DNA of 32,000 bases from Candidatus Hadarchaeales archaeon (lineage in GTDB: Archaea > Hadarchaeota > Hadarchaeia > Hadarchaeales > Hadarchaeaceae): assembly GCA_038823825.1 (NCBI GenBank), contig JAWBCC010000003.1, forward strand, positions 90,001-122,000. The letters run 5' to 3'. Positions within the stretch are counted from its first letter, which is position 1. Each line of letters starts with the position of its first letter. Made by a program: the position numbers and the translations under genes. The notes beneath the pieces are model-generated. The model made no database searches. It saw only the letters and a list, made by a program, of their open reading frames with translations, and was not told the DNA's origin. Positions 1 to 22,438 of this stretch are shown piece by piece.

Positions 1-996
1 GAGGGAGAAATCTACACACCAAGGGAGGTCATAAAACTGCTCGTTGAGATTTTGAATCCGAAATCTGGAGAATCTGTTTATGATCCAGCGTGCGGATCGG
101 GTGGAATGCTCATTTTGTCGTTCAAGAATGTGGAGGAAAAGGAGGGGAGGGAGGCAACCCGAAAGCTCTCCTTGTACGGACAGGAGGCAAACCGGGAGAT
201 TTTCGCTCTCTGCAAAATGAATATGTACATCCACGATATTAGGGATGTCAACATTGAGTGGGGTGATACGCTTCTCTATCCAAAGTTCATTGAGGGGAAC
301 AGGCCAAAGACTTTCGACGTTGTGATGGCGAATCCACCTTGGAATCAGGATGGTTATCACGAGGAGGTTCTGAAGAAGGGAGAGTTCTGGGGAGAGAGGT
401 TTGTCTACGGTTTCCCGCCCAAACAGTCTGCGGACTGGGCATGGATTCAGCATATGCTGGCTTCCGCCGACGGGAAAAACGGAAGGGTTGGGGTTGTTAT
501 AGACAACGGTTGTCTGTTCAGGGGAGGGAAGGAGCGGGCAATAAGGGAGAGGGTGCTGAGAGATGACCTGCTGGAGTGCGTGATCCTTCTGCCGGAGAAG
601 CTCTTTTATAACACCGGAGCCCCGGGAGCCATTCTGATTTTCCGTAAACATAAGCCAGCCGAGAGGAAGGGGAAGATCCTGTTCATTAACGCGAGCCAGG
701 AGTATGAGAAGCATCCAGAGGTGAGGAAGCTGAACAGGCTTGGGGAGGCAAACATAAGGAAGATCGCTGAGGCCTACAGGAACTTCAAGGATGTTGAGGG
801 TTTCGCCAGAGTGGTTTCGCTGGGGGAGGTGAGGGAGAACGATTACAATCTAAACGTCACGCTGTACGTCTTTCCGGAGGAGAAGGTCGAGGAGATAGAC
901 GTGGCGAAGGAGTGGGAGGAACTCCGCAAGATTGAGAAGGAAATTACAGAGGTTGAGGAGAAGATTCAGGGATATTTGAGGGAGGTTGGAGGTTAA
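1..996 (+). CDS. hsdM: Type I restriction-modification DNA methyltransferase subunit HsdM (5' end cut by the window)
   Basis: Frame 1 is open from base 1 (EGEIYTPREVIKLLVEILNP precedes the listed Met at 52). It has the AdoMet motif DPACGSGGML and the catalytic NPPW (MANPPWNQ) of N6-adenine methylases. It sits in an operon with hsdS and hsdR. Confidence 0.95.
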   Translation, partial: EGEIYTPREVIKLLVEILNPKSGESVYDPACGSGGMLILSFKNVEEKEGREATRKLSLYGQEANREIFALCKMNMYIHDIRDVNIEWGDTLLYPKFIEGNRPKTFDVVMANPPWNQDGYHEEVLKKGEFWGERFVYGFPPKQSADWAWIQHMLASADGKNGRVGVVIDNGCLFRGGKERAIRERVLRDDLLECVILLPEKLFYNTGAPGAILIFRKHKPAERKGKILFINASQEYEKHPEVRKLNRLGEANIRKIAEAYRNFKDVEGFARVVSLGEVRENDYNLNVTLYVFPEEKVEEIDVAKEWEELRKIEKEITEVEEKIQGYLREVGG

Positions 997-1000
997 ACAA

Positions 1001-1651
1001 ATGAAAAGATCAAATGATGAGATTCGCGAGTTAATTCTAAGAGAATTATATGAAGTTCACAAAAAAGCTAGGAGTCTAAAAGCCACGGGAAAAAGCATAA
1101 GCGAGTTGAAACGCCAACTTAAGAAGCAATATGGACTAAGTGAAAAAGAAATTGTGCCCAATCTTGATTTTTTAATCCAATGCGGTTGGGTAAAGGTAGA
1201 GAAAGAAACATCCGAGTTTAAAACTCCAAGAGGGTTTATAAAGAAACAGGAGAAAGGTATCTTCAAAATTTCAGATATGGGTATCAACTATTTTGAAGGA
1301 CAATCCAAATTCCAAAGGATAGAGAGATCGCTTGCTGGTATAAACATAACTAATATAGGTGGGGTCACAGTCTTAGGGGACGGAAATGTAGTTGTAAATG
1401 TAAACTATGTTGATTTATACAAAGAACTGTCTATGCTTTCAGAGATCATAAGAAAAAGTGATCAACTCAAAGATGTTGACAAATTAAACTACATCGCGGA
1501 AATTGAAACAATAAAATCCCAGTTGATGAAACCGGAACCTGACAAGAACATAATAAAGCAAGCTTGGGAAAAACTAAAGCCACTTGCAACTATTGCTGGC
1601 ATAGCTTCGTTTTTCGAGCGAGTTGTTAAATTAATGGGGGCATTGTTTTGA
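1001..1651 (+). CDS. Hypothetical protein embedded between hsdM and hsdS; N-terminal winged-helix-like region, helical C-terminal half, hydrophobic C-terminal tail
   Basis: ATG at 1001 lies 7 nt after GGAGGT (988-993) and 5 nt after the hsdM stop. The listed 986 start is a TTG inside hsdM. The stop overlaps the hsdS TTG start (TTGA at 1648-1651). The N-terminus (IRELILRELYEVHKK...SISELKRQL...LDFLIQCGWVKV) looks wHTH-like. The tail is LATIAGIASFFERVVKLMGALF. The gene is AT-rich (about 32% G+C in a hand-counted 60-nt line). I recognise no family. Confidence 0.7.
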   Translation: MKRSNDEIRELILRELYEVHKKARSLKATGKSISELKRQLKKQYGLSEKEIVPNLDFLIQCGWVKVEKETSEFKTPRGFIKKQEKGIFKISDMGINYFEGQSKFQRIERSLAGINITNIGGVTVLGDGNVVVNVNYVDLYKELSMLSEIIRKSDQLKDVDKLNYIAEIETIKSQLMKPEPDKNIIKQAWEKLKPLATIAGIASFFERVVKLMGALF

Positions 1652-2913
1652 AAACCGGTTACAAACAAACGCCAATCGGTAGTATCCCGAAGGAGTGGGA
1701 GGTTGTCAGGCTTGGGGATATTTCTAAGGTATCTTCGGGGAATACAGCACCGCAAGATAAAAAATATTTTGAAAATGGGAAATATCCTTTCATAAGAGTT
1801 CAGCACCTTAGTACATTGCTAGAAAATAAATATCCTATTATTTGCGATTTTGTAAATGACTTGGCTGTTGAGGAACTCAAATTGAAAAAATTCAAGAAAG
1901 GTTCTATAATATTTCCGAAAAGCGGGGAGTCTATAAGGCTTGAAAAAAGGGCGATACTAAGAGAGGATTCCTATGTGGTAAACCACTTAGTTGTTGTCGA
2001 AGTTTTTTCAAATAACGTAGATACAAACTTTTTATATTATTATTTGTCAAGCCTCAGAACAAGTAGTTACCTTTCTAAAACTACAATGCCATCACTCAAT
2101 CTTTCAGTCATTAAATCATTTTTAATCCCCCTCCCACCCCTCCCCGAGCAACGTAAGATCGCCGAGATCCTCTCAACAGTCGACCAAGCCATCCAGAAGG
2201 TGGACGAAGCCATAGCCCGGACTGAGAGGTTGAAGCGTGGGCTGATGCAGAGGCTGCTCACCCGGGGTATAGGGCACAGGGAGTTCAAGGACACGGAGAT
2301 AGGGAGGATTCCGAGGAAGTGGGAGGTTGTCAGGCTTGGAGACAAAAAAATTACAGAAGAACTTTTCTACGGTATAACCGCTAAAGCTGTCGATAAGGAT
2401 ACTGGAGTAAAAATGTTGAGAACTACGGATATCAAAGAGTATTCTGTGGACTGGGAAAAACTTCCTTTTTGTGAAATCACTGAAAGGAGGGGTAACTTAA
2501 CTAGATATCTTCTGAAGAAAGGAGACCTGATTGTAGCAAGGGCTGGAACTGTGGGCGTTTCTATTCTTGTGGATAGAGATTTTGACAACGTGATTTTCGG
2601 ATCATATCTGATAAAAGTGAAGCTAAAACCAAGCATACATCCAAAATTTGTTCACTATTTCTTCCAATCCTCACTTTATTGGAAACACCTGCAAAAGGCT
2701 CAAGGAAGTACTTTAAAAAACGTAAACCTGCCTTTGTTAAAATCTCTCAAGATCCCCCTCCCACCCCTCCCCGAGCAGCGCAAGATCGCCGAGATCTTCT
2801 CAATCGTCGACAAAAAGCTCGAACTCGAAAGAAAAAGGAAGGAAAAACTCGAGCGGATCAAGAGGGGTCTGATGAACGATTTGCTCACCGGGAAAAAGAG
2901 GGTGAAGATATGA
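1648..2913 (+). CDS. hsdS: Type I restriction-modification specificity subunit HsdS (two target-recognition domains)
   Basis: The architecture is duplicated. Each half opens with IP(K/R)(E/K)WEVVRLGD and ends with the conserved spacer LPPLPEQRKIAEI(L/F)S(T/I)VD followed by a coiled coil (RLKRGLMQRLLT and RIKRGLMNDLLT). The TTG start overlaps the upstream stop. Confidence 0.95.
   Translation: MKTGYKQTPIGSIPKEWEVVRLGDISKVSSGNTAPQDKKYFENGKYPFIRVQHLSTLLENKYPIICDFVNDLAVEELKLKKFKKGSIIFPKSGESIRLEKRAILREDSYVVNHLVVVEVFSNNVDTNFLYYYLSSLRTSSYLSKTTMPSLNLSVIKSFLIPLPPLPEQRKIAEILSTVDQAIQKVDEAIARTERLKRGLMQRLLTRGIGHREFKDTEIGRIPRKWEVVRLGDKKITEELFYGITAKAVDKDTGVKMLRTTDIKEYSVDWEKLPFCEITERRGNLTRYLLKKGDLIVARAGTVGVSILVDRDFDNVIFGSYLIKVKLKPSIHPKFVHYFFQSSLYWKHLQKAQGSTLKNVNLPLLKSLKIPLPPLPEQRKIAEIFSIVDKKLELERKRKEKLERIKRGLMNDLLTGKKRVKI
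2125..2184 (+). repeat. hsdS internal direct repeat, copy 1 (central conserved region)
   Basis: ATCCCCCTCCCACCCCTCCCCGAGCAACGTAAGATCGCCGAGATCCTCTCAACAGTCGAC matches 2752-2811 at 55 of 60 positions by eye. Confidence 0.9.
2752..2811 (+). repeat. hsdS internal direct repeat, copy 2 (distal conserved region)
   Basis: ATCCCCCTCCCACCCCTCCCCGAGCAGCGCAAGATCGCCGAGATCTTCTCAATCGTCGAC is the partner of 2125-2184. Confidence 0.9.
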
Positions 2914-3884
2914 TTGACCAACATTTGGAAAAAGAAAGAGTGATCGTGGACGAAAAATTAAAACAAAATGAAGAGACCAAAGTATACGAAATTTTTCGTG
3001 AAGTTATGAAGAGTTATCTCGGAGTAGAAATAGAAAAAGAAAAGGCAGGACGAATTTTAGAATTTTTCATGACAGTAATGTATAACTTGACTTTGAATCC
3101 AAGCGCCATCGTTAGAGGGTACTACCTTTGCGCAGAGCAAGATTATGAAGCCGCTAAGTTATTGAGTAAAAAATTTCCCTCCCTCGCCGTTTTTCATTTA
3201 CAACAGACCGTAGAAAAAATAACTAAAGCTTACGCGCTCCACATGGGATTGATAAAAGAAGAAGAATCGTATAAAAAACGAGGAAATAAAGTCGGGACCG
3301 AAGTTGTTGGTCATATCTCACCTAAGGCTTTTATTTTGTTGTTGAAGAAAAGAGGCGCTGCAGAATTCGTCGATACGGTTTTTCTTGCATGTCCAGAAAT
3401 TCCCAAAATAACTGTTAAAGAAGTTCTTCAAAAATTCGAAAAATTACTACAAAAAACGGATGAATTGGCAAAACTCTCAAAAAATGAAATAAACCATTTT
3501 ATAAAAAGATGCGAAGACATCCAAGACGCCATTAGAAAAATTGACATCAGGAAAACAAGGGAAAATTTCAAACGCCTCAAAGTAGGGTTTATTGCAAGAC
3601 TAAGATCTGCGGTTTCACCAGAGATAGTTGAAGATATCAAGAAAAAATTTAACGCGATAGAAAGGAAGATCGGTTCAATAATCAATGAACTTCTAACGTT
3701 TTCGCAACTATATGCTCTGGCGATAATCACCTTTCCGCACTTCTCCTACAGTCGATACCCTGGAGGCAAAATAACATTTGCTGACTATCACGAAGGGCTG
3801 GGTATAGTAGATTCTCTCGATGATATTTTGATCTCTATCGGTTCTATTATGAAAAGTCTAGAAAAAATTTGTGCGAGAGGGTGA
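2910..3884 (+). CDS. HEPN-like protein with a large helical insertion, embedded between hsdS and hsdR
   Basis: ATG at 2910 overlaps the hsdS stop (ATGA) and follows GAGGGTGA (2896-2903). The stop lies 2 nt before the hsdR ATG. The N-terminal helices AEQDYEAAKLLSKKFPSLAVFHLQQTVEKITKAYAL resemble the HEPN helix pair. The C-terminal FSYSRYPGGKITFADY resembles the HEPN (s)RYP(d/g) element. About 170 residues separate the two. The gene is AT-rich (about 28% G+C in a hand-counted line). The listed 2679 start is an out-of-frame read of hsdS. Confidence 0.7.
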   Translation: MIDQHLEKERVIVDEKLKQNEETKVYEIFREVMKSYLGVEIEKEKAGRILEFFMTVMYNLTLNPSAIVRGYYLCAEQDYEAAKLLSKKFPSLAVFHLQQTVEKITKAYALHMGLIKEEESYKKRGNKVGTEVVGHISPKAFILLLKKRGAAEFVDTVFLACPEIPKITVKEVLQKFEKLLQKTDELAKLSKNEINHFIKRCEDIQDAIRKIDIRKTRENFKRLKVGFIARLRSAVSPEIVEDIKKKFNAIERKIGSIINELLTFSQLYALAIITFPHFSYSRYPGGKITFADYHEGLGIVDSLDDILISIGSIMKSLEKICARG

Positions 3885-3886
3885 AA

Positions 3887-6800
3887 ATGCCAATCTTTAC
3901 CGAAAAATCCACTGTTGAAAGCTACATCATAGAAAAGCTGAAGGAAAAAGGCTGGAAGCATGTTCCCGGAGAAGAATTAGAGCGAGAAGACTACTCCGAA
4001 CCGCTTTTGGTGAGGCATCTTCTTGAAGCAATCCACAGAATAAACCCCCACCTAACCCTGACAAAAAAGGATCTGGACAGAATTCTGCTAGAACTCAGGA
4101 GCCTTCCATCCACATTTGATGGTTCCAAGCGACTGCTCAAGTTCCTAAAAGAAGGAATCCCAATAGAACTGGAAAAAACAGGAGAACTCAGATATGTCTC
4201 TCTGCTCGATTACGAAAACCCAAAGGAGAAAAACGAGTTCATCGTAAGCGACCAAGTACCTTTCCACGGGCCTAAAGAAAGATGTAGACTTGACATAGTC
4301 CTCTACGTAAACGGAATCCCGCTTGTAGCAATAGAGTGCAAAAACCCGACCGACCCGACCAGAGACTGGGAAACTGCCTATAAACAGATAAAATCTTACG
4401 AAAAGGCTGTCCCAGAACTCTTCAAGTATGTCCAGTTCAGCATAGCCGCCGCCGCGACCACCAGATATTTCCCGAACGTCTTAGGAGCCGAGGATGTCAA
4501 AATCTACTTCCCTAAAGGGAAAGATACTCCCGAGTCCCTGGATCGAACACTTGACCTCCTCCTAAATCCAGACGCTCTCCTCGATCTTGTTGCAAACTTC
4601 ATTTTCGCGAGGGAAGAGCATGGAAAGTTCACAAAAGTTTTGCCCTACTACTACCAGTACGAAGGCGCCAACCAAATCTACCAAAGAGTCCTTAACAACC
4701 TGTCTGAGAAGGAAAAAAAAGAGAAGGGGTTGATCTGGCATTGGCAGGGTTCCGGAAAAACCCTCACGATGATTTACGCCGCCCGTAAACTTTACCTTTG
4801 CCCCCTGCTTGAAAACCCCACCATCTTCTTCGTCGTCGACAGAGAGGAGCTTGAGGAGCAACTGTTTAAAGAATTTTCTTTCTTAGACCTCGGCATACCC
4901 TCACCTGAGGTCATTTCTTCGATCGAGCACCTCCGTCAGATTCTGACCTATGACGAGGGAAGAGGAAAGAGGGGGATGTTCATCACTCTCATTCACAAGT
5001 TCGGCGAAAAGCTTGCCGATCTCGTTTTTGAGGACAAGGACATGAAAAACATTTCAAACAGGAGAAACGTCATCGTTTTAATAGACGAGGGACATCGGAC
5101 GCAGTACGGAGAGTATGCCGGCCGTATGCGAGGCATACTCAAGAAAGCTTTCTTCTTCGCTTTCACGGGAACTCCTTTCTCCACGAAAAAGAGAGATACC
5201 TTCGCCGCTTTTGCTTATCCCGAGGAGGGCGAACTCTATCTTCACAAATATTTTGTCCGAGAATCAATTGAAGACGGTTTTACCCTCCCCATTGTTTTCC
5301 AGACTAGGATGGAAAAAGAGGTCGGCCTAGAAAAAGAACTACTGGAAGAGTTTTTGGAGCAAGAGCTGGAGGAAATCACCGAAGAATCCCTCCGCCTCGC
5401 CCTAGAAGGAAAAATCAGCAGACGATTGACCCAGATCGTTGTATTCTTTGAGAATCCAGAAAGAATAGAAAAGATTGCCAGCGATATCGCCACTCATTTC
5501 AAGGAAAACGTGGACGGAAAGTTCAAAGGCATGGTTGTGGCGGCTTCAAGAAAAGCGTGCATCTATTATAAGGAGGCTCTCGATCGGCTGCTGGGACCGG
5601 AATACTCCGAGATTGTTATGACGTTCAATCCTCGCACGGACCCCGAACCGATCAAATCCTATTACGAAAAGTTGAGGCAGAAATATCATGGCAAGGAGAT
5701 TGAGGAAATCTGGGATGAGATAATCGAGAAGTTCAAAGAAAGGGAATATCCGAAAATTTTAATCGTCACGGACAAACTTCTGACAGGTTTTGATGCTCCA
5801 ATTCTCCAAGTGATGTATCTAGACAAGCCGCTGAAGGAACATAGGCTTCTTCAAGCAATAGCAAGAACCAATCGTCCATTCAAAGAACTAAAACCAGCGG
5901 GTCTCATCATAGACTATGTCGGAATTCTCAAAGAATTCGAAAAAGCCGTGGCCATTTACGAAAAGCAGGATATTCAGTACGTAGGCTTCAAGCCGGAAGA
6001 AAAGATAGATGAGCTTCGAAAGCTTATCAGCGATGCGGAGGAGACCCTTGAGGGTGTGGATAAAACAAAAACCGATTTTGAAACTCTTAAAGCCGCAGCA
6101 AAACTGCTCTTTCATTATCCAGAAAAGCAGAGAAAATTCTCCCAAACGTACAAACAGGCTAGAAATCTTTACGAGTTTCTTCTCCCCTTCGGGCTGGACA
6201 AGAAGACTGTGGAGAGATTCAAATGGCTGGCCGCAGTCTACAACTTTCATCGCCAATGGGTGGAGCAGGAGAAGTCAGAGGAAATGGAAGAAAACTTTAG
6301 AAAATTCTATCCAAGAGTTGTTGAGCGCGTTCACAAGGCCATCCAAATAGAAATGAAAGAAGAGTTTCCAAGTTTAACGCTTGATAAAGAATATCTTGAA
6401 CGGTTGGGCAGATTGGGTTTAGAAGACCAAGTTTATAACATGGTTTTCGGTCTAAACAAATATATCCGCGTAGACCGTCCGTTCAGTCCTATTTATGAAC
6501 CAATCGCCAAACGCGTGGAAAAACTAGTTGAAAGGTGGCGAAACAAAAAGATTTCGGTCGAGGAGGCTTATAACGAAGCAGTTTCCATTTTGCAGGAAAC
6601 GAGAAAAACCGAGGAGAGAATAAAAACGCTCGGATTCTCAGAGCCAGAATACTTCATTCTCAAAGTTCTTGAAAAGGAACTGGGAGAATCTGAGGATCTA
6701 GTCCAAGAAGTCCGGAGTCTCTGGAGAAAATGGGAGAAGACTGGAAAAATATTCCCAGGATGGACTCGAAAAATGAGTATCCTAAAGGAACTCGTGCGAG

Positions 6801-6895
6801 ATATAAGAATGTTCATGGTAAAGAAAGGTATCCCACTTAAAAGGAGGGAAGAGCTCTGTGAGGAGATCATCAACGGACTCAAGGCCACTTCATAA
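3887..6895 (+). CDS. hsdR: Type I restriction enzyme endonuclease/translocase subunit HsdR
   Basis: PD-(D/E)xK-type nuclease motif DIVLYVNGIPLVAIECK. SF2 helicase motifs WQGSGKT (I), DEGHR (II), TGTP (III) and QAIARTNR (VI). ATG 3887 follows GAGGGTGA. Confidence 0.95.
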   Translation: MPIFTEKSTVESYIIEKLKEKGWKHVPGEELEREDYSEPLLVRHLLEAIHRINPHLTLTKKDLDRILLELRSLPSTFDGSKRLLKFLKEGIPIELEKTGELRYVSLLDYENPKEKNEFIVSDQVPFHGPKERCRLDIVLYVNGIPLVAIECKNPTDPTRDWETAYKQIKSYEKAVPELFKYVQFSIAAAATTRYFPNVLGAEDVKIYFPKGKDTPESLDRTLDLLLNPDALLDLVANFIFAREEHGKFTKVLPYYYQYEGANQIYQRVLNNLSEKEKKEKGLIWHWQGSGKTLTMIYAARKLYLCPLLENPTIFFVVDREELEEQLFKEFSFLDLGIPSPEVISSIEHLRQILTYDEGRGKRGMFITLIHKFGEKLADLVFEDKDMKNISNRRNVIVLIDEGHRTQYGEYAGRMRGILKKAFFFAFTGTPFSTKKRDTFAAFAYPEEGELYLHKYFVRESIEDGFTLPIVFQTRMEKEVGLEKELLEEFLEQELEEITEESLRLALEGKISRRLTQIVVFFENPERIEKIASDIATHFKENVDGKFKGMVVAASRKACIYYKEALDRLLGPEYSEIVMTFNPRTDPEPIKSYYEKLRQKYHGKEIEEIWDEIIEKFKEREYPKILIVTDKLLTGFDAPILQVMYLDKPLKEHRLLQAIARTNRPFKELKPAGLIIDYVGILKEFEKAVAIYEKQDIQYVGFKPEEKIDELRKLISDAEETLEGVDKTKTDFETLKAAAKLLFHYPEKQRKFSQTYKQARNLYEFLLPFGLDKKTVERFKWLAAVYNFHRQWVEQEKSEEMEENFRKFYPRVVERVHKAIQIEMKEEFPSLTLDKEYLERLGRLGLEDQVYNMVFGLNKYIRVDRPFSPIYEPIAKRVEKLVERWRNKKISVEEAYNEAVSILQETRKTEERIKTLGFSEPEYFILKVLEKELGESEDLVQEVRSLWRKWEKTGKIFPGWTRKMSILKELVRDIRMFMVKKGIPLKRREELCEEIINGLKATS

Positions 6896-7619
6896 AGTGC
6901 TGAGGATAGAAGGAGAAAGCATACCTTATACTGTCGAATGGAGGAAAGTGAAATATCCGCGTTTGGAACTGAAAACCGGGAAGCTAAAGATAATTCTTCC
7001 AAAAGGAGTAAAGGACGAAACACCCATTCTGGAAAGAAATCTCCAGTGGATACTTAAAAGGCATGAAGAAATCAAGAGGGCAAAGGAGAACATAGCAAAC
7101 TCCTTGAGCGGAAATGGGATTCTCATCTTCGGCTCTTTCTATAAAGTCGAGCCGGGCATACCCCTCGTCATTTTCCTGAACGGGATACAGAAAAAGTTCG
7201 ACCTGATGAAAGAAAGAGACCAGGTTAAACTAAGAAACTTTCTAAAAAAGATTCTGAGAGAGGAGCTGAGGAAGTTAGTGAACCACTATTCATCAAAATT
7301 TGGTCTGAGATTCGGAAGAATATACATAAGAAACCAGAAAACAAAATGGGCAAGTTGTTCCTCCTCGGGTAACCTGAGCTTTAACTTCCGGCTTGTTCAC
7401 GTACCATATGATATTTTAAAGTATGTTGTCTGTCATGAGGTTCTTCACCTAGCTGAAAAAGGTCATTCGAAAAAATTCTGGGAAAAAATCAGAGAGGAGT
7501 TTCCAAACTACAAAGAGATGGAGAAAAAACTTTTCGAATACTGGTTTTTCACGATGGATTCCCAATTTCCAGATATTCGTTTTATTGGAAAGCGAAAAAC
7601 CTCAAGAAATTTGGAATGA
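6858..7619 (+). CDS. DUF45/YgjP-like (WLM-type) zinc metallohydrolase
   Basis: HExxH motif in VVCHEVLHLAEKGHSKKFW. GTG 6858 is preceded by GGAGGG (6843-6848) and overlaps the hsdR 3' end by 38 nt. COG1451-type proteins are commonly found next to hsdR. Confidence 0.85.
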   Translation: MRRSSTDSRPLHKVLRIEGESIPYTVEWRKVKYPRLELKTGKLKIILPKGVKDETPILERNLQWILKRHEEIKRAKENIANSLSGNGILIFGSFYKVEPGIPLVIFLNGIQKKFDLMKERDQVKLRNFLKKILREELRKLVNHYSSKFGLRFGRIYIRNQKTKWASCSSSGNLSFNFRLVHVPYDILKYVVCHEVLHLAEKGHSKKFWEKIREEFPNYKEMEKKLFEYWFFTMDSQFPDIRFIGKRKTSRNLE

Positions 7620-7643
7620 AAAAGACAGAGAAACCTTCAAACA

Positions 7644-7680
7644 TTAGGCAAACCTAACTTTTTATGTTAGGCTCACCTAA
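7644..7680 (+). promoter_or_regulatory. Putative autoregulated promoter: two DtxR-type operators flanking a TATA box
   Basis: TTAGGCAAACCTAA (7644-7657) and TTAGGCTCACCTAA (7667-7680) are each TTAGG-N4-CCTAA inverted repeats. TTTTTAT (7659-7665) lies between them, and the ATG at 7689 is 24 nt downstream, a leaderless-type spacing. TTAGG...CCTAA are the outer arms of the DtxR/IdeR box consensus. Confidence 0.6.
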
Positions 7681-7688
7681 TTTTCTCG

Positions 7689-8390
7689 ATGAGAAAACGT
7701 CTCTCACAGTCCGAGGAAGAATATCTAGAGGCGATTTACAGAGAAACTCGCACAGGCAAGGATGCAAAAATCTCCAAGCTGGCTTCATCGCTCAAGGTAA
7801 AATCCCCAAGCGTAGTCCAGATGATAAACAGACTTTCCAGACGCGGCCTGACCAGCAAAACGAAAGAAGGAGTCCGACTTACAAAAAAGGGAGAAGCCTC
7901 CGCGGCGAAGATAGTTAGGAGACATAGACTGGCAGAACGACTTTTGAGCGACATTCTCGGCTGCGATCTTCCAAGCGTCCACGAGAAAGCCTGCGAGCTC
8001 GAGCACGTGATCGACGACGAACTCGCAGAAAAACTGGAGAAGGTCCTTGGAGCCCCCTCATGCCCTCACGGCGCCCCCATCCCCGACAGAGAAGGGAAGA
8101 CGCCCGACATAGGCACCATCCCCCTCAGCGAGGTGGGTGAGGGGAAAAAAGCCATCATCTTCAGGATTCCAGAAGACAGATTGGCCGTTCAAAGGCTTCT
8201 ATCCCTTTGCATTTTGCCCGGAGCCGAGGTAGAGGTGCAGAGGAAATCCCCAGGAGGTTCCGTGATCATAAAAGTTGGTAAAACAAACGTCGCCCTGAGC
8301 GGAGATCTCTCGAGAAATATAGAAGTCGCAAGTCCAGCCGTCTGGAGGAGGTTCAGACACAGATGGCGCTGGGGGATAAGAAAACCCTGA
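7689..8390 (+). CDS. DtxR/MntR-family metal-dependent repressor fused to a C-terminal FeoA (SH3-like) domain
   Basis: N-terminal wHTH SEEEYLEAIYRE...ISKLASSLKVKSPSVVQMINRL. Dimerisation and metal region RRHRLAERLLSDILG...HEKACELEHVIDDEL...CPHG. C-terminal FeoA-like GEGKKAIIFRI...RLLSLCILPGAEVEV. The 3' end overlaps feoB by 28 nt. Confidence 0.9.
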   Translation: MRKRLSQSEEEYLEAIYRETRTGKDAKISKLASSLKVKSPSVVQMINRLSRRGLTSKTKEGVRLTKKGEASAAKIVRRHRLAERLLSDILGCDLPSVHEKACELEHVIDDELAEKLEKVLGAPSCPHGAPIPDREGKTPDIGTIPLSEVGEGKKAIIFRIPEDRLAVQRLLSLCILPGAEVEVQRKSPGGSVIIKVGKTNVALSGDLSRNIEVASPAVWRRFRHRWRWGIRKP

Positions 8391-11965: not shown

Positions 11966-12154
11966 ATGAGGCTGAAAGGACCGAAGTGCATGATCTGTGG
12001 GGAGAAGATACAGATAATGAGTATGGACTCGGCCTACGTGAAGTTTGTTAGACCTGGCGAAGCCAAAGGAATCTTCATCTGCTGGAAGTGTGCTGAAAAG
12101 GAGTTCGGCGAAGTCCTGCAGGATATCCTGACAAAGGTCGCTGGTAAGGGGTGA
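11966..12154 (+). CDS. Small zinc-ribbon-like protein (62 aa)
   Basis: Two Cys pairs, CMICGE ... CWKCAE. The stop overlaps the GTG start of the downstream primase-polymerase gene (GTGA), which suggests translational coupling. Confidence 0.55.
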   Translation: MRLKGPKCMICGEKIQIMSMDSAYVKFVRPGEAKGIFICWKCAEKEFGEVLQDILTKVAGKG

Positions 12155-13236
12155 TCTCCTTGACGGTCACTCCCCAAGATCACATCCTGATGACCCTAGC
12201 CATCAAAAGGATAGGAAAATTCGTAGATCTCGAACACATAAGGGAAAAGCTCTGCAGGGACGGAGGAAGGGATTTCTCTCTGGAAGAGACGAAGATGCTT
12301 TTAGATTCATTGATCGGAAAGGGTCTCGTGCAGGAGAAAGGAGGGGAGTACGCTCTCACGGAAAAGGGCCGCGACTTTTTCGAGAAAAGATGGAGAGAAG
12401 TTAAAGATCATCTGAATCAAGACTATCTAAAGGTCTACCGGGCAAAGCGATATTACCCCCATGTTTCTAAAACCATCCTAGAGTTCTGCAAGGACAGATA
12501 CGTTTCAGTTTTCAGGCTCTTTACAGACCGTGCCTGGCTTCAAAGGAAACTCGGTCCCCGCTGGATAACGATAAAGAGCGAGGACGACATACAATACTGG
12601 CTGGACATTCACGGCATCGATTTCATCCCCTACATTCACAGAATTGGAAGCGATAGGCCCGACTGGCTCGTCATAGATTTTGACGCCGGAAAGAAAGTAG
12701 AGTTCGAGCAGACGAAGAAGGTTGTCATGACAGCCGCCGAAGTTTTACATAATTACGGAATCGAGGTTGCGTTGAAGTTCAGCGGTTCCCGTGGCTTCCA
12801 GCTTTGGGCGGTTTTCGAGCCTCACGATCTGCCGACAGATTACCAACCAAAAAAGCTGAAAACGGAACGCAGGGAACGAAACTTTTTCACCTTTTACTCG
12901 GATATCATAAGATTTGTCGAAAGCAGAGTAGCGAAAAAACTCCCGAATCTCACAACCTCGGAAACGGCGAAAAAAGAAGAGAGGGAAGACAAAGTCCTCC
13001 TCGACGCCTCCATAATAAAGCCGATGGGAGACGTCAGGGCTCCCTATTCCATGCATCACCGAACTGGTCTCATTTCCATGCCAGTGGGTTTAGATGAGCT
13101 AGAGGAATTCGAACCCAAGCAGGCAGATCCAGATCTTGTCGTTCAGCGCTATAGGAAAAGGGGAAACGAATTTAAGCTCAAGCCTTGTGATGGTTCAAAG
13201 TTGTTCGAAGATTTGGTCAAATGGTGCAAAGAGTAA
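12151..13236 (+). CDS. Archaeo-eukaryotic primase (AEP) superfamily protein, LigD polymerase-domain-like, with N-terminal wHTH
   Basis: AEP catalytic motifs: WLVIDFDAG (DxD), KFSGSRGFQLWAVF (SGxRGxH-like) and LLDASIIKPMGDVRAPYSMHHRTGLISMPV (LigD-Pol-like motif III). N-terminal MarR-like LLDSLIGKGLVQEKGGEYALTEKGRDFF. Confidence 0.8.
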   Translation: MISLTVTPQDHILMTLAIKRIGKFVDLEHIREKLCRDGGRDFSLEETKMLLDSLIGKGLVQEKGGEYALTEKGRDFFEKRWREVKDHLNQDYLKVYRAKRYYPHVSKTILEFCKDRYVSVFRLFTDRAWLQRKLGPRWITIKSEDDIQYWLDIHGIDFIPYIHRIGSDRPDWLVIDFDAGKKVEFEQTKKVVMTAAEVLHNYGIEVALKFSGSRGFQLWAVFEPHDLPTDYQPKKLKTERRERNFFTFYSDIIRFVESRVAKKLPNLTTSETAKKEEREDKVLLDASIIKPMGDVRAPYSMHHRTGLISMPVGLDELEEFEPKQADPDLVVQRYRKRGNEFKLKPCDGSKLFEDLVKWCKE

Positions 13237-13645: not shown

Positions 13646-15718
13646 ATGAAGAAGGTGTTCGTGATATGCGAAAAGCCGTCAGCTGTTCCTAAGATAGCTG
13701 AAGCGATAGCCGGGAGAAAGGTTACCCAGAAAGAGCTGATGGGTATCCCATATTGCGAGTTTGAAAGAGACGGAAAGCTCTTCGTCGTCGCACCGGCGAT
13801 GGGACATTTGTTTACTCTAAAAAGTATAAAGTCTCTCAAAGATTATCCGGTTTTTGACCTCAAATGGGTGCCCATCCATGAGGTCGAGAAAAACGCAAAA
13901 AATGCGGCTAGATTCATAAAAGCCCTGAGAGAGCTCTCAAAGAACGCAGAGGAGTTTATAAGTGCCTGTGATTTTGACGTCGAAGGAAGCGTTATTGCCT
14001 TCAACGTTCTCCGCTTCATCTGCGGGAGTGATGTCATATCCAAAGCGAGGAGGATGAAGTTCTCCACGCTCACCCGCGAAGAGTTAAAGAAATCTTTCGA
14101 GAATATGCTGCCCACATTAGACTTTGAAGTTATAAATGCCGGTCTCGCAAGACATTATCTCGACTGGTATTGGGGGATGAACGTCTCAAGATTTCTAAGC
14201 TCTGCAGCCGAGAAGGCTGGAAATAGATTTGTAAAGTTATCGGCCGGTCGTGTTCAAACCCCCACTCTTAAAATCCTTCTCGATCGCGAGAGAGAAATAA
14301 AGAACTTTGTTTCGGTTCCCTTCTGGGTTTTGAAAGCCGTGATCGAAATCGGCGGGGAAGAGTTCATCGCTGAACATGAAACAGAAAAATTTTGGGAGAA
14401 AGAAAAAGCTGAGGAAGTCTACTCGGCATGCCTTGGGCAACCGGCGAGGGTAGTCGAAGTCAAACGCAGAAAAATAAACAGAAATCCTCCACCTCCGTTT
14501 GATCTAGGAACGCTCCAGTCGGAGGCATACAGATGTTTTGGTTTCACACCTATGAGGACGCAGATGATCGCCCAAGATCTCTATCAAGCCGCGCTTATCA
14601 GTTATCCAAGAACGAGCAGCCAAAAGCTCCCCAGCTCGATAGGCTACCGCGATATTCTACAGAGAATTGCGAAAATCTCACCAGACTACGCTGAAATCGC
14701 TCTAGATCTTCTGAGACAGCAAAAATTAGTCCCGGTCGAAGGTAAGAAAACGGACCCGGCGCATCCGGCCATATTTCCGACGGGCGAGCCACCTGAAGAG
14801 CTCCCAAGCACCCATCAAAAGCTGTATGACATGATCGTCCGCAGATTCCTCGCTGTTTTCAGCAAGCCCGCTATGCTCGAAAGCACGCATGCAGATTTGG
14901 ACATAGGCGGTCAAAGGTTCTTCCTCCGCGGTCAAAGAATACTCGATCCAGGATGGCTTGAATCCTACGGAAAGTATGTTTCCTACGAGGAACAAATGAT
15001 TCCGGAGATAGAGAAAGGCGAAGAGCTGAAAGTCAAGAACATTCTGTTGGAGGAAAGAAGGACACAACCGCCGCCCAGATTTAACCCAGCATCGCTCGTG
15101 AAAGAGATGGAGGCGCGCGGTCTCGGGACGGAGGCGACCAGAGGCCCCATTGTGCAAACCCTTTACCAGCGCGGGTATATTCAGGGTAGACAGATAACGG
15201 TTACACGGCTGGGGGAAACCGTGGTTGAAAGTCTTAGGATATGTCCGGCAATTCTGAGCGAGGAACTCACCGCCAGATTCGAGCGGGAGATGATGGAAAT
15301 TCAGGAAGGAAAGGCAAATTGGGAAGACGTTGTCAAAAAAGCTGAGCGAGAACTCTCCACTTTGCTGGAAGAAATGAAAGCGAGGGAGAAAGAGGTCGGA
15401 GAGAGATTGATTGAGGCTTACAAGCTTGCCTTGAGAAAATCCTTTGGAAAATGCCCAAAGTGTGGAAAAAATCTGAGAATGGTGATTGCACAAAAGAGCG
15501 GGAAGAGGTTTGTCGGCTGTGAGGGTTATCCATCCTGCGACTTTTCTCTGCCACTACCTCAGCAGGGAAGCATAGAAATTCTAGATACTCCTTGCAAGAT
15601 CTGTGGTTGGCCGGTCATTCTCGTGAGAAGAAGTGGCAAGCGACCTTACAGAACATGTTTGAACCCATCTTGTTCGTCGAAAAATCGCTTGAAGGATGTG
15701 TATAACCAGCAGGAATAA
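13646..15718 (+). CDS. topA: DNA topoisomerase, type IA (archaeal TopA/Topo III-like) with C-terminal zinc ribbons
   Basis: Toprim N-terminus VFVICEKPS and ACDFDVEG. Active-site tyrosine context LISYPRTSSQKL. C-terminal CPKCGKNL...CEGYPSCDF and CKICGW...CLNPSC zinc fingers. Confidence 0.95.
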   Translation: MKKVFVICEKPSAVPKIAEAIAGRKVTQKELMGIPYCEFERDGKLFVVAPAMGHLFTLKSIKSLKDYPVFDLKWVPIHEVEKNAKNAARFIKALRELSKNAEEFISACDFDVEGSVIAFNVLRFICGSDVISKARRMKFSTLTREELKKSFENMLPTLDFEVINAGLARHYLDWYWGMNVSRFLSSAAEKAGNRFVKLSAGRVQTPTLKILLDREREIKNFVSVPFWVLKAVIEIGGEEFIAEHETEKFWEKEKAEEVYSACLGQPARVVEVKRRKINRNPPPPFDLGTLQSEAYRCFGFTPMRTQMIAQDLYQAALISYPRTSSQKLPSSIGYRDILQRIAKISPDYAEIALDLLRQQKLVPVEGKKTDPAHPAIFPTGEPPEELPSTHQKLYDMIVRRFLAVFSKPAMLESTHADLDIGGQRFFLRGQRILDPGWLESYGKYVSYEEQMIPEIEKGEELKVKNILLEERRTQPPPRFNPASLVKEMEARGLGTEATRGPIVQTLYQRGYIQGRQITVTRLGETVVESLRICPAILSEELTARFEREMMEIQEGKANWEDVVKKAERELSTLLEEMKAREKEVGERLIEAYKLALRKSFGKCPKCGKNLRMVIAQKSGKRFVGCEGYPSCDFSLPLPQQGSIEILDTPCKICGWPVILVRRSGKRPYRTCLNPSCSSKNRLKDVYNQQE

Positions 15719-19822: not shown

Positions 19823-20872
19823 ATGAACGAAATTACTCTGGAAGACTCTATTATGAAGCTCGTCGAGGAAATAAGATTCTACGAGATCAGAAGGATGAAG
19901 CTTATCAAGAAAATTCTGGAGAAAAATGTTTTCTCCAAGCTGAAAATGAGGATACAAAAGTTGACCATGGACGAAATTTCTGTTTGTGGAGTGGACGGAG
20001 GAATGTTGCAGTTGCAGTTGAACGGTTTAGATGTTGTCGCGATCAGAGCTGTGGCCGTCGTTTTTCATTATCTAGCAGGTAGACTGGCTTCGGTTGAATA
20101 TTTTCCTTCAGGTCCAGCCCCAATTCATTTCTTTTTGGTCAAGGAGCCGTTAGACAAAGTTAAGACGGACTCATTGGCAGGCATGAGAAGACAAATACTA
20201 GAAGTTTCTAGGGCTAGAGAAGTGATAGGGAAAGGGGCAGCGCAACTCGTTTTGTTAGATGGATCGATTCTTCCGCAATATGTAGAGAGATTTCAGGATT
20301 GCAGGGAGTACGCCGAGCAATATGACGAGCTTATAACCTCATATAGAAGGCTTTTCGAGGAAGCAGAAAGCAAGGGCGTTTTGTTGGCCGGCCTTGTGAA
20401 GGATAGCAGGGGAAAGAGATTTTGTCAAATGCTTGCAGAGTTAGCAGAGTTGGACGGAGAAGATAAAGACTTTCTTCTCAGCTACCGCGATATCGCTATT
20501 CTCGATGAAATCTTATCCGAGAAAGAGCGTACGATCGCTTTCCCTTACACCGAGGAATTTCCTCCGCAAACCTTGGGAGGTCTTGAGGATTTCGGTAGAA
20601 AAGTTAACGTATTCTATGCGAGGATGTCGCAGTTTGATGTGCCGTTTCGTGTTGAGTTTTTAGCAACCAGGAATTCTGAAGAAGTTGCGGATGAACTCTC
20701 CTCGATCTTGGAATTCCTCTTTTCTTTCGGTTTTGGGTTTTCGATTCCACCCGTCCTGGTGGAGGCAGATTTCAGAGCGAGATTAAGAGAGGAGGCGGAA
20801 TGGATCCAAGAAAGGGTTTTCGATGTTATTGGTCCAAGATTCTTGACGAGGCGGGATCGGAGACCTCTGTGA
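19823..20872 (+). CDS. nurA: NurA-family 5'-3' nuclease
   Basis: NurA motifs VCGVDGG, LVLLDGSILP, LVKDSRGK and VLVEADFRAR. It is immediately upstream of, and coupled to, the HerA-like ATPase. Confidence 0.8.
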   Translation: MNEITLEDSIMKLVEEIRFYEIRRMKLIKKILEKNVFSKLKMRIQKLTMDEISVCGVDGGMLQLQLNGLDVVAIRAVAVVFHYLAGRLASVEYFPSGPAPIHFFLVKEPLDKVKTDSLAGMRRQILEVSRAREVIGKGAAQLVLLDGSILPQYVERFQDCREYAEQYDELITSYRRLFEEAESKGVLLAGLVKDSRGKRFCQMLAELAELDGEDKDFLLSYRDIAILDEILSEKERTIAFPYTEEFPPQTLGGLEDFGRKVNVFYARMSQFDVPFRVEFLATRNSEEVADELSSILEFLFSFGFGFSIPPVLVEADFRARLREEAEWIQERVFDVIGPRFLTRRDRRPL

Positions 20873-20881
20873 GGTGGTCTG

Positions 20882-22438
20882 GTGGAGCTAGGTACTGTCA
20901 TCGCTACGCCCGATGGGCCCACTCCCAGAAAATTCTGCTTTGTGGTAAAAGAAGGAGTTGTGGTTGGACTAAACAAGTTTGTGAAAGTAGAAGTCGACGG
21001 AAACTGGGCTTACGGTTATGTCAAGAACGTTGTGAGAATGAACAGGTATTTCCAAAAGACCGATGCTGTGTGGGAATATGAAAGAGGGGGAGGATTGAGC
21101 GCGGCTTTTCCGACGAGCATGTGGGAATATTCCATCGCAGAGGTTTGGGTTTTTGGATATTTGAAAGAGGGTTTTCTCAGAAGACCCTCCTTGCCACCAT
21201 CGCCAGGCAAAGTTGTTTTCGATTTAACGGATGAAGAACTTAGATTTGTGCTCGGTTTAGACGAAGATGGATTAGAAATTGGGGAACTCGAGGAGCAAAA
21301 TCTCCTAGTTAGACTTAACCCAACTCGTCTTTTACAGAAACATCTCGCCGTGCTCGCGATGTCCGGTGCAGGAAAAAGTAACTGCGCAAAGGTGATTGTG
21401 GAGGAGCTTTTGAAGAGAAACCCGGAGAGAGGGAGGCCAGCAGTTCTGATATTTGACGTTCACGGGGAATATTCTGATCTGGTTCGAAGTTTTCCCGGAC
21501 AGGTTGTTGAGGTTAAGGCAGAGAACATTAAAATAAATACTTCTGAGCTGACGGTTTGGCATTTCCGAGAATTCATTCCAGAAATGACTGGCAGCCAAGC
21601 CAGAGAGCTCGCTCAAATACTCGATGATCTCAAATCGAAGAAAGGATTTTTCGAGATCTGGGACATCATAAATCGTCTACGGGAGTTGGAAGGATTAAAC
21701 AAGAATCTGAGAGGGGCGTTGGAAGGATGGCTTTTTGACTTACAATCTCTTGGTATTTTCGGCAGAGAAGACTGTCCTAGATGGGACTCGCTGATTTTTC
21801 CAGGACGCGCAGTTGTGGTGAACATGGAAAGGATGACGAGTCTGACGAAGAAGCAGATTCTGCTGACATACATTGTTAACAGGATTTTCCATCTGCGGAG
21901 GAGAGGACTAGTCCCACCGATAGTTCTGGTGATCGAAGAAGCACACACTTTTGCCCCAACGGAAGCAGCGATTTCTAAACATGTTCTGGAGACGGTCGCA
22001 AGGGAAGGAAGAAAATTCCACATTTCGCTCGTTGTCATTTCCCAGCGACCTGTTAGGCTTTCGACCACGTTGCTCTCGCAAACGAACACGAATATAATCT
22101 TAAGGATAACGAATCCATATGATCTTGAACACATAAAGAAATCTTCCGAAATGGTGACCGGGGAGGTGGCAGAATCTATATCTAGTTTAGCTGTTGGTGA
22201 AGCACTTGTCGTTGGAGAAGCCGTGAACGTTCCAATCTTCGTTAGAATCAGGCGAGTATCATCACCCATCTCCTTTGAATTTAGCTTGGAAGAAGCAGCA
22301 AGACTTTACGAGCTTTCGCTTTCCGTCGGAATTGAGAGAACTGCGAAAGAAGAGCACTCATCGAGCCTTAGTATGACATCTGACGGAAGCACCTGTTCCT
22401 CCGCATACTCGTCCAGAACCGGTGAGAGATCGACATGA
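20882..22438 (+). CDS. herA: HerA-like (DUF87, FtsK/HerA superfamily) hexameric ATPase/helicase
   Basis: N-terminal HAS-barrel-like GTVIATPDGPT...VGLNKFVKVEV, Walker A LAMSGAGKSN, Walker B VLVIEEAH, and SQRP. GTG start 7 nt after GAGGTGG. The last ~45 codons overlap a convergent ORF, so the true 3' end is uncertain. Confidence 0.9.
   Translation: MELGTVIATPDGPTPRKFCFVVKEGVVVGLNKFVKVEVDGNWAYGYVKNVVRMNRYFQKTDAVWEYERGGGLSAAFPTSMWEYSIAEVWVFGYLKEGFLRRPSLPPSPGKVVFDLTDEELRFVLGLDEDGLEIGELEEQNLLVRLNPTRLLQKHLAVLAMSGAGKSNCAKVIVEELLKRNPERGRPAVLIFDVHGEYSDLVRSFPGQVVEVKAENIKINTSELTVWHFREFIPEMTGSQARELAQILDDLKSKKGFFEIWDIINRLRELEGLNKNLRGALEGWLFDLQSLGIFGREDCPRWDSLIFPGRAVVVNMERMTSLTKKQILLTYIVNRIFHLRRRGLVPPIVLVIEEAHTFAPTEAAISKHVLETVAREGRKFHISLVVISQRPVRLSTTLLSQTNTNIILRITNPYDLEHIKKSSEMVTGEVAESISSLAVGEALVVGEAVNVPIFVRIRRVSSPISFEFSLEEAARLYELSLSVGIERTAKEEHSSSLSMTSDGSTCSSAYSSRTGERST

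Follow-up and report, generated by a model that had tools for sequence, protein, structure and literature searches.

A HEPN protein with a split core encoded between hsdS and hsdR of an archaeal type I restriction-modification operon

Type I restriction-modification (R-M) operons encode a methylase (HsdM), a specificity subunit (HsdS) and a restriction subunit (HsdR), and an additional gene lodged between hsdS and hsdR raises the question of what it encodes and whether it serves the same defense. We examined such a gene in a window of 32,000 nucleotides (nt) from a Candidatus Hadarchaeales archaeon (assembly GCA_038823825.1, contig JAWBCC010000003.1, positions 90,001 to 122,000 of the forward strand); coordinates below are those of this window unless a locus is named. 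The gene, here called X, lies on the plus strand of the chromosome at 2910-3884 and specifies 324 amino acids (aa). An initial annotation, made from the sequence alone, had described its product as a HEPN-like protein that is split by a long helical insertion and has no obvious copy of the Rx4-6H motif of HEPN RNases, and had left it between a non-catalytic adaptor and a divergent nuclease. We find that X is very probably a member of the classical HEPN family (Pfam PF05168, HEPN-T) with its core split by a helical insert.

The top Pfam match of X was PF05168, at 19.5 bits, below the 22-bit cut-off, and over profile positions 8-47 of 117. The same profile matched 28 of the 28 family members tested (best E 8e-12, up to 47 bits), the above-threshold matches in relatives being mostly confined to its first half. 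When the insert of X was deleted in silico, keeping residues 62-160 and 254-324, the PF05168 score climbed to 23.9 bits, and one relative spliced in this manner covered profile positions 2-115. A profile built from 20 spliced sequences matched the solved HEPN proteins TM0613 (1o3u; 5.6e-6) and ST0689 (1wol; 2.8e-5), and then 4nqf and TT1696. The profile check therefore came out in favor of HEPN membership, both in the family and in the spliced profile. At the level of individual elements, core helices 1-2 of X align to TM0613, ST0689 and TT1696, and the Gly-His element of a spliced homologue (P0066) falls on the second His of "RGHSISH" in ST0689 (phmmer). The PH-x4-RYP element of the X family is collinear with "SRYPD" of ST0689, at the end of core helix 3, as expected from the sRYP element that had been read in the C-terminal part of X.

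An hhalign comparison of the family alignments with a classical HEPN protein from a Candidatus Methanoperedens sp. locus (L017), used as a single-sequence template, was uninformative, with a probability below 1%. The AbiV profile, PF18728, gave no match in X and remained below threshold in the relatives (best 21.7 versus 27.1 bits); the subthreshold matches, in 6 of the 28 members, spanned about positions 7-57 of 155, which is helices 1-2 only. No ATPase domain was detected in X by the family-library searches, no NCBIfam, PADLOC or PHROGs model matched it, and neither Pfam, NCBIfam, PADLOC nor PHROGs has a dedicated model for the X family.

We compared predicted structures with solved ones for X and for P0078, a family member of naturally small size (246 aa) that aligns to X with about 23-27% identity and retains the invariant residues; it was modeled as a stand-in. 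The AlphaFold model of X was all-helical, with a predicted local distance difference test (pLDDT) of 78.6 and a predicted template-modeling score (pTM) of 0.78, its confidence peaking at residues 70-110 and 290-320; the only meaningful match in a Foldseek search against the PDB was 1wol (ST0689; probability 0.92, template-modeling score [TM] 0.42). The P0078 model (pLDDT 80.6, pTM 0.84) matched 1ufb (TT1696; probability 1.00, TM 0.63), 1wol (probability 0.99, TM 0.61), 4nqf (probability 0.96, TM 0.51) and the sacsin HEPN domain 3o10 (probability 0.87, TM 0.58), with TM values normalized to the target. These alignments cover 214-231 columns, although the targets have merely 122-151 residues. 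Given that the alignments span the insert, both halves of P0078 build one HEPN core from which the insert is looped out. Thus, the two segments that had been proposed to pack into one four-helix core do so in the P0078 model, which matches single-domain HEPN structures across the insert. The initial annotation had let its split HEPN reading depend on the profile search and the structure prediction, and both spoke for it: the core is interrupted between helices 2 and 3.

With helices numbered after Anantharaman et al. 2013 (PMC3710099), X divides into the following parts.

2910..3884, plus strand: X, split HEPN-T protein, 324 aa, from profile and fold evidence.
2910..3092, plus strand: X residues 1-61, N-terminal two-helix extension (model helices 4-37 and 43-60), variable in the family.
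3093..3251, plus strand: X residues 62-114, HEPN core helices 1 (66-85) and 2 (90-111), PF05168 positions 8-47, pLDDT about 94.
3252..3356, plus strand: X residues 115-149, K/R-rich flexible loop, G-H135-x-S/T-P138 (134-138) and a short helix, from conservation and the model.
3357..3668, plus strand: X residues about 150-253, family-specific helical insert with conserved ELAK-x-S-x-x-EI (A187, I194), from the model.
3669..3881, plus strand: X residues 254-324, core helix 3 (254-274), P-H277-F-S-Y-S-R282-Y283-P (276-284), Y293 and the LGIV loop, and core helix 4 (303-322).

The three peptides on which the initial annotation was built occur in X as quoted, at residues 71-114, 132-141 and 275-296, and its account of the architecture needs revision in two respects. 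The N-terminal block consists of HEPN core helices, as proposed, although it contains helices 1-2 only and not helix 3. The insertion, put at about 170 residues, shrinks to a net insert of about 100 aa relative to classical HEPN (residues ~150-253). The stretch VVGHISPKAF lies outside this insert and is itself a conserved HEPN-T feature. The Lys/Glu-rich, helical character ascribed to the middle of the protein was confirmed: residues 115-274 (160 aa) have a K+E fraction of 0.24 and an isoelectric point of 9.7 and are predicted to be helical. Insertions into HEPN domains customarily fall between helices 2 and 3, as this one does, and the helices of the insert in the X model span residues 150-160, 169-180, 183-187, 191-209, 213-232 and 237-251. 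Library searches found no domain match for the insert; weak matches to SlyA, ATP synthase b and DUF4248 were rejected as coiled-coil or compositional noise. Model confidence varies along the chain, with a pLDDT below 50 in the K/R-rich loop at residues 122-134 and of 90-93 over residues 290-320.

We then asked what remains of the HEPN active site. A regular-expression scan found no Rx4-6H anywhere in X, in agreement with the initial annotation, and the only related patterns were H-x4-R, at residues 5 and 277; the nearest His had been said to have its closest upstream Arg 11 residues away, and these residues are H135 and R124. Conservation was measured in 156 cluster representatives of 205-339 aa, each less than 50% identical to the others. 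Among these, H135 (codon 3312-3314) and H277 (codon 3738-3740) are 100% conserved; E102, K103, K106, Y283 and Y293 reach 99%, R282 (codon 3753-3755) and Q99 97%, Q98 95%, and D78 94%. In core helices 1-2, the conserved residues are A75, D78, L85, Q98, Q99, E102, K103 and K106, at 94-99%. The stretch before D78 varies from 0 to 93 residues (median 60) and is much shorter in short members, and the spacing from H135 to H277 ranges from 91 to 173 residues (median 133) across all 156 representatives. The homologue alignment that had been suggested as a way to find conserved Arg and His residues thus yielded two His and one Arg.

The Arg of the ancestral Rx4-6H motif, which lies where helix 3 ends, is R282 and is kept in 97%. 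Just 3 of the 156 representatives have a His at R+5 to R+7, and the motif His has been lost in the other 153. Since H135, H277, E102, K103, K106, R282, Y283 and Y293 are near-invariant, this loss is not decay, and the conserved set points to a putative active or ligand-binding site and away from a domain in decay. The census of Anantharaman et al. describes HEPN-T and AbiV as often lacking the motif His while keeping the basic residue, with an alternative conserved His, contributed by an insert between helices 2 and 3, that may rebuild the active site (PMC3710099). Judged by alignment, H135 lies at exactly the position of this alternative His. The acidic residue of core helix 2 (E102, 99%) and the alternative His (H135, 100%) are both present, as in HEPN-T, and H277, five residues before R282, appears to be specific to the X family. 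Of the two possibilities that the initial annotation had held open, the near-invariant H/H/R/Y/Y/E/K/K set favors a divergent nuclease over a non-catalytic adaptor; it is not proof.

X is a real gene and not a chance open reading frame (ORF), because an identical protein exists at NCBI (a "hypothetical protein" of a Candidatus Hadarchaeales archaeon metagenome-assembled genome [MAG], 100% match), sequence searches find homologues down to E 1e-103, and its family comprises 1,712 cluster representatives. Its ATG at 2910 overlaps the hsdS stop (ATGA, 2910-2913), its TGA stop occupies 3882-3884, and the hsdR ATG at 3887 follows only 2 nt downstream; an in-frame TTG at 3869 is an alternative hsdR start that would overlap X. 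A purine-rich GAGGGTGA element precedes the X start and the hsdR start alike. X is translationally coupled to hsdS upstream and to hsdR downstream. The N-termini of homologues align on the Met of ATG 2910. A longer, TTG-initiated ORF at 2679-3884 was rejected as the extent of X, with its out-of-frame overlap with hsdS and homologues that begin at the ATG.

The operon in which X is embedded contains hsdM, hsdS and hsdR, all apparently intact, with hsdM cut solely by the window edge.

52..996, plus strand: 3' part of hsdM, which continues beyond the window start; it carries the N6-methylase motif NPPW.
986..1651, plus strand: variable cargo gene (221 aa) that lies between hsdM and hsdS and overlaps both of them at its ends.
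1648..2913, plus strand: hsdS, the specificity subunit; it has two target-recognition domains and matches Pfam Methylase_S in two stretches (E 1.3e-51).
3887..6895, plus strand: hsdR, restriction/translocase subunit, none of its expected domains missing (Pfam HSDR_N, SWI2_SNF2, ResIII, T1R_D3-like, T1RH-like_C).
6858..7619, plus strand: YgjP-like metallopeptidase-fold (metallohydrolase-fold) gene (Pfam YgjP-like PF01863, E 1.7e-41).

The order hsdM, variable cargo, hsdS, X, hsdR, YgjP-like gene is shared by the window and every close full-length relative, and in all of these the stop and start codons of hsdS, X, hsdR and ygjP overlap or abut. A phmmer search with the full-length HsdM of one relative, L001, found an HsdM ORF in most related loci. 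The YgjP-like gene, which overlaps the hsdR 3' end by 38 nt in the window, accompanies hsdR in most related loci (L001-L007, L024, L046, L054, L110 and others). No neighboring ORF in the window has a nucleotidyltransferase domain, consistent with the earlier remark that no minimal nucleotidyltransferase (MNT) is adjacent, and none adjoins X in the loci of close relatives or in most loci examined.

To gauge how general this arrangement is, we turned to the wider family. A word-indexed search returned 15 relatives only; an exhaustive profile search gave 1,712 cluster representatives at E<=1e-3, 654 at 1e-10 and 97 at 1e-30; the best 150 of the 1,712 are nearly all 184-339 aa long. Related loci were gathered with a narrower family alignment (A1). 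Genome matches came mostly from archaeal MAGs (Hadarchaeota-like, Nitrososphaeria, Methanoperedens, Thermoplasmatota, Methanomassiliicoccus, DPANN and one Asgard), with some from bacteria (Dehalococcoidia, Pirellulales, Caldisericaceae, Aquimarina). The 120 loci fetched held 92 distinct X proteins, 28 of which have type I genes in the locus; among those with at least 2.5 kb on both sides, the count was 14 of 37. In 18 of the 28 type I-linked loci, HsdS is directly upstream or HsdR directly downstream, and the closest full-length relatives all have both. Given that about two thirds of the family lie outside R-M loci, coupling to R-M cannot be general for it.

The remaining contexts are varied. 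X lies directly upstream of an EcoEI-type hsdR in L014 and after the YgjP-like gene in L024. In L039 (1260-5209), a homologue is directly downstream of a McrB-like AAA_5 gene (598 aa) and its 420-aa partner, which suggests an association also with a McrBC-type system. Other homologues are found beside a SLFN/AlbA_2 gene (L013), housekeeping genes or, in L025, an integrase. The homologue in L041 has a gene for an unfused 508-aa PD-(D/E)XK protein directly upstream and, about 2.7 kb upstream but on the other strand, one for an RtcB RNA ligase. One metagenomic representative (P0102, 770 aa) fuses an N-terminal DUF2779 module (E 6e-45, RNase_H_2-like) to a full C-terminal X domain. The Candidatus Methanoperedens sp. 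locus L017 carries, at 5507-6548, a classical MNT (Polbeta/NTP_transf_2, 195 aa) and a 159-aa classical HEPN protein (PF05168, profile positions 4-110), inserted after hsdS, with an hsdS fragment and X following just downstream; between X and hsdR, this locus has about 4 kb of further genes (UPF0158, DUF1186/SEC-C). Since L017 has this separate pair next to X, X and classical MNT-HEPN pairs are distinct.

Comparisons among close relatives revealed how X evolves within the operon. In L005 (2339-8303) and L006 (2109-8049), X, hsdR and ygjP are 100% identical. Upstream of X, this identity persists for 656 nt, through the 3' half of hsdS as far as the middle of the gene, and is lost beyond that point, where unrelated sequence has replaced the cargo and the first recognition domain. 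L001 (6745-12725) is syntenic with both loci at about 87% DNA identity except in the hsdS recognition domains and X, and L001 and L006 have the same cargo, 88% identical. At the protein level, L001 is 87% identical to L005/L006 in HsdR and 82% in YgjP, compared to 43% in HsdS and 37% in X. Within X, only an 80-nt stretch in the helix 1-2 region aligns, and DNA identity resumes about 15 nt or less from the hsdR start. X turns over like the HsdS recognition domains and is a hypervariable cassette, a pattern expected for an arms race in direct conflict with viral factors. We also considered that X might co-evolve tightly with HsdR as a structural partner, and the pairwise identities of 37% versus 87% do not support it.

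How does X compare to HEPN systems that have been described? With classical HEPN proteins (PF05168/HEPN-T; TT1696/1ufb, ST0689/1wol, TM0613/1o3u, 4nqf), it shares the helix 1-2 signature A..D...A..L ... QQ..EK..KA, the Gly-His after helix 2 and the sRYP where helix 3 ends, and the fold match covers the whole reference domain. Unlike them, X has no MNT partner, all X members carry the insert, and an invariant His five residues before the Arg (PH-x4-RYP), an invariant Y293 and the LGIV element have been added. The insert amounts to 55 to 135 extra residues, whereas inserts reported in the census are up to 60 aa (PMC3710099). Classical HEPN proteins have about 120-150 aa compared to 205-339 aa for the aligned X family, whose shortest apparently complete members have about 230-250 aa, and the Pfam model detects only the first half of the domain in this family. 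The absence of Rx4-6H is a known deviation within HEPN-T and AbiV (PMC3710099) and does not exclude membership.

AbiV, the Lactococcus abortive infection protein (PF18728), also has extra helices between core helices 2 and 3 and is, in likeness to the X family, a stand-alone defense protein of about 200 aa. The report on it describes an RNase that needs R91 and H97 for activity, both located in a flexible, Lys-rich loop immediately following core helix 2, and that is neutralized by an RNA antitoxin, abiV2 (bioRxiv 10.1101/2024.05.05.592566). The catalytic Lys-rich loop of AbiV parallels the K/R-rich loop 122-134 that precedes H135 in X. In contrast to X, AbiV is not embedded in R-M operons, and the sRYP and PH-x4-R of X are not described for it; no counterpart of abiV2 fits or is detected at X. 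By its sequence, X lies outside the AbiV family.

A third comparison is with PrrC, which belongs to the HEPN superfamily and, like X, has its gene within a type I R-M operon. In E. coli, prrC is located between hsdS (prrB) and hsdR (prrD). PrrC is described as a guardian of R-M embedded in a type IC locus (PMC12707154), and that of the E. coli EcoprrI locus as being released when phage T4 Stp blocks restriction (PMC3710099, PMC12707154). The census further reports that HEPN-T clusters with R-M operons and proposes PrrC-like roles for R-M-linked HEPN clades (PMC3710099, 2013). PrrC has an N-terminal ABC-ATPase and a canonical Rx4-6H, whereas X has neither, and for these reasons X is not a PrrC/RloC protein; nor is it part of a HEPN-MNT pair, since no MNT is adjacent. 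PrrC is also bacterial, whereas X is mainly archaeal, and beyond the superfamily, no sequence relationship to X is detectable. By analogy, PrrC would nonetheless be the closest functional counterpart of X, with the same proposed logic of an RNA-targeting back-up freed when restriction is blocked.

Drawing these results together, our best overall explanation, to which we give slightly less than an even chance, is that X is an R-M-linked HEPN RNase with a noncanonical site that provides a second, RNA-directed layer of defense. Its four-helix core is assembled from two distant segments, residues 62-149 (helices 1-2 and the Gly-His loop) and 254-324 (helices 3-4 and PH-x4-RYP). X would then act as a metal-independent endoribonuclease, in which R282 of the ancestral motif may form an active site together with H135 and/or H277 and with neighboring Tyr, Glu and Lys residues; a HEPN dimer is probably needed to complete this site. 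The second layer, expressed along with the type I R-M enzyme, would most likely be under PrrC-like control, with X inactive, directly or indirectly, while HsdMSR is intact and released once a virus disables restriction. We infer RNase activity from residue conservation and from analogy, and consider the arguments for and against it evenly balanced; control of X by the R-M complex in the manner of PrrC is, in our view, doubtful.

Several observations weigh against this explanation. The window protein is itself under the PF05168 threshold, its own model yields merely a weak HEPN match, and there is no canonical Rx4-6H; no PADLOC model matches X, and the clustering of the conserved residues in space is assumed from homology. 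X does not have the ABC-ATPase regulatory domain of PrrC, and about two thirds of the family have no detectable R-M genes nearby. In addition, there is no sign of an RNA or protein antitoxin (no intergenic space, tandem repeats or Rfam match), so the restraint of a toxic RNase is left unexplained. An AbiV-like or ToxI-like RNA antitoxin was considered and rejected: the window has no Rfam match, positions 1-8000 contain no tandem repeats, and there is no intergenic space.

X could alternatively be a non-catalytic accessory or regulatory subunit of the type I enzyme, with the HEPN core and insert forming a scaffold that binds HsdS and/or HsdR and serves, for example, in the control of HsdR loading, in restriction alleviation together with the YgjP-like hydrolase, or in the sensing of anti-restriction proteins. 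Some HEPN domains are non-catalytic, and such a subunit would suit the fixed and translationally coupled slot between hsdS and hsdR, the missing Rx4-6H, the large conserved insert as a possible protein-binding surface, and the variation of X along with the HsdS recognition domains. We regard it as unlikely. That two His, one Arg, two Tyr, one Glu and two Lys stay nearly invariant in about 156 very divergent representatives is typical of a catalytic or ligand pocket, two thirds of the members have no R-M genes nearby, and an identity of 37% in X against 87% in HsdR is hard to reconcile with a conserved HsdR-binding interface; to our knowledge, moreover, typical type I enzymes function without an X-like subunit. 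A separate and bolder reading would make X the dedicated fourth component of a widespread archaeal type I lineage, docking to HsdS/HsdR through its insert and coupling DNA restriction to RNA cleavage or to anti-restriction sensing via an undescribed His ... His-x4-Arg-Tyr site, with X alleles exchanged together with HsdS recognition domains, which they must match or with which they must share viral inhibitors; taken jointly, these claims are decidedly improbable.

The prevalence of stand-alone family members in varied neighborhoods raises the opposite possibility, that X acts as an autonomous HEPN toxin or abortive-infection gene, functionally unconnected to R-M and merely parked in a recombination-prone slot. 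The exchange of X alleles is indeed sharply bounded, by the conserved part of hsdS on one side and the hsdR start on the other, and type I loci of these archaea collect unrelated defense cargo. However, the slot is not random: X lies between hsdS and hsdR with coupled codons in most type I-linked loci, whereas the hsdM-hsdS slot carries different genes each time. A free-standing toxin would also need some other restraint, as no antitoxin is adjacent, and we hold this possibility to be rather improbable. Finally, the closest relatives of X are MNT-associated classical HEPN proteins, and its invariant Tyr residues adjoin the Arg; HepT toxins are AMPylated on Tyr by MntA, and L017 has a classical MNT-HEPN pair immediately upstream of X. 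X might thus be a HEPN sensor that binds a nucleotide or other small ligand, as the name of the domain originally implied, and that responds, for instance, to nucleotide pools or to a signaling nucleotide, or it might be the substrate or partner of a nucleotidyltransferase encoded elsewhere, and not a nuclease. Given that X lacks an adjacent MNT in the window and in most loci, that the L017 MNT already has its own classical HEPN partner, and that no search points to a ligand, we consider this very unlikely.

Some of what we describe is already known: HEPN genes in R-M operons, HEPN-T included, were proposed as PrrC-like back-ups in 2013 (PMC3710099). New is a large, mainly archaeal and unmodeled subfamily with a big conserved insert, the His ... 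His-x4-Arg-Tyr set, the hsdS-X-hsdR slot and cassette-like diversification. X combines a HEPN core that encloses a conserved subdomain of about 100 aa, strictly conserved catalytic-looking residues other than Rx4-6H, and a fixed type I slot in which it diversifies at the pace of the DNA-recognition domains. We know of only a few R-M-embedded HEPN proteins that have been characterized, and those are in bacteria. If X is an RNase, it would add to the active-site variants of the HEPN fold and provide, in archaea, a "restriction guardian" amenable to experiment; otherwise, X would be a rare case of a conserved extra subunit of a type I enzyme. Either way, the family merits its own family model in place of the "hypothetical protein" annotation.

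The other genes of the window set the operon in its surroundings. The C-terminal half of the cargo gene at 986-1651 matches the PADLOC candidate defense protein PDC-M14B (E 2.9e-8), and no Pfam family matched this gene. In related loci, the hsdM-hsdS slot holds PIN_3-like, SLFN/AlbA_2+HATPase_c_4, TIR+OLD-family ATPase or EVE/ASCH-like genes. Because the same slot carries quite different defense-type genes across related operons, it behaves as a cargo bay within the type I operon. The G+C content is 36-42% over the cargo gene, hsdS and X (1001-4000) compared to about 45-51% in hsdM, hsdR and the flanking chromosome, which fits with the cargo gene, hsdS and X being the exchangeable part of the operon. 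No tRNAs were found in the window. Its remainder has the gene content of an ordinary stretch of archaeal chromosome (DtxR-like/FeoB-like, endonuclease V-like, Prim-Pol, topoisomerase IA, NurA-HerA, SufBD and others), and since ordinary archaeal DNA-repair and replication genes lie downstream, the R-M operon is chromosomal. These downstream genes include Prim-Pol at 12151-13236, topoisomerase IA at 13646-15718 and a NurA-HerA pair on the plus strand at 19823-22438.

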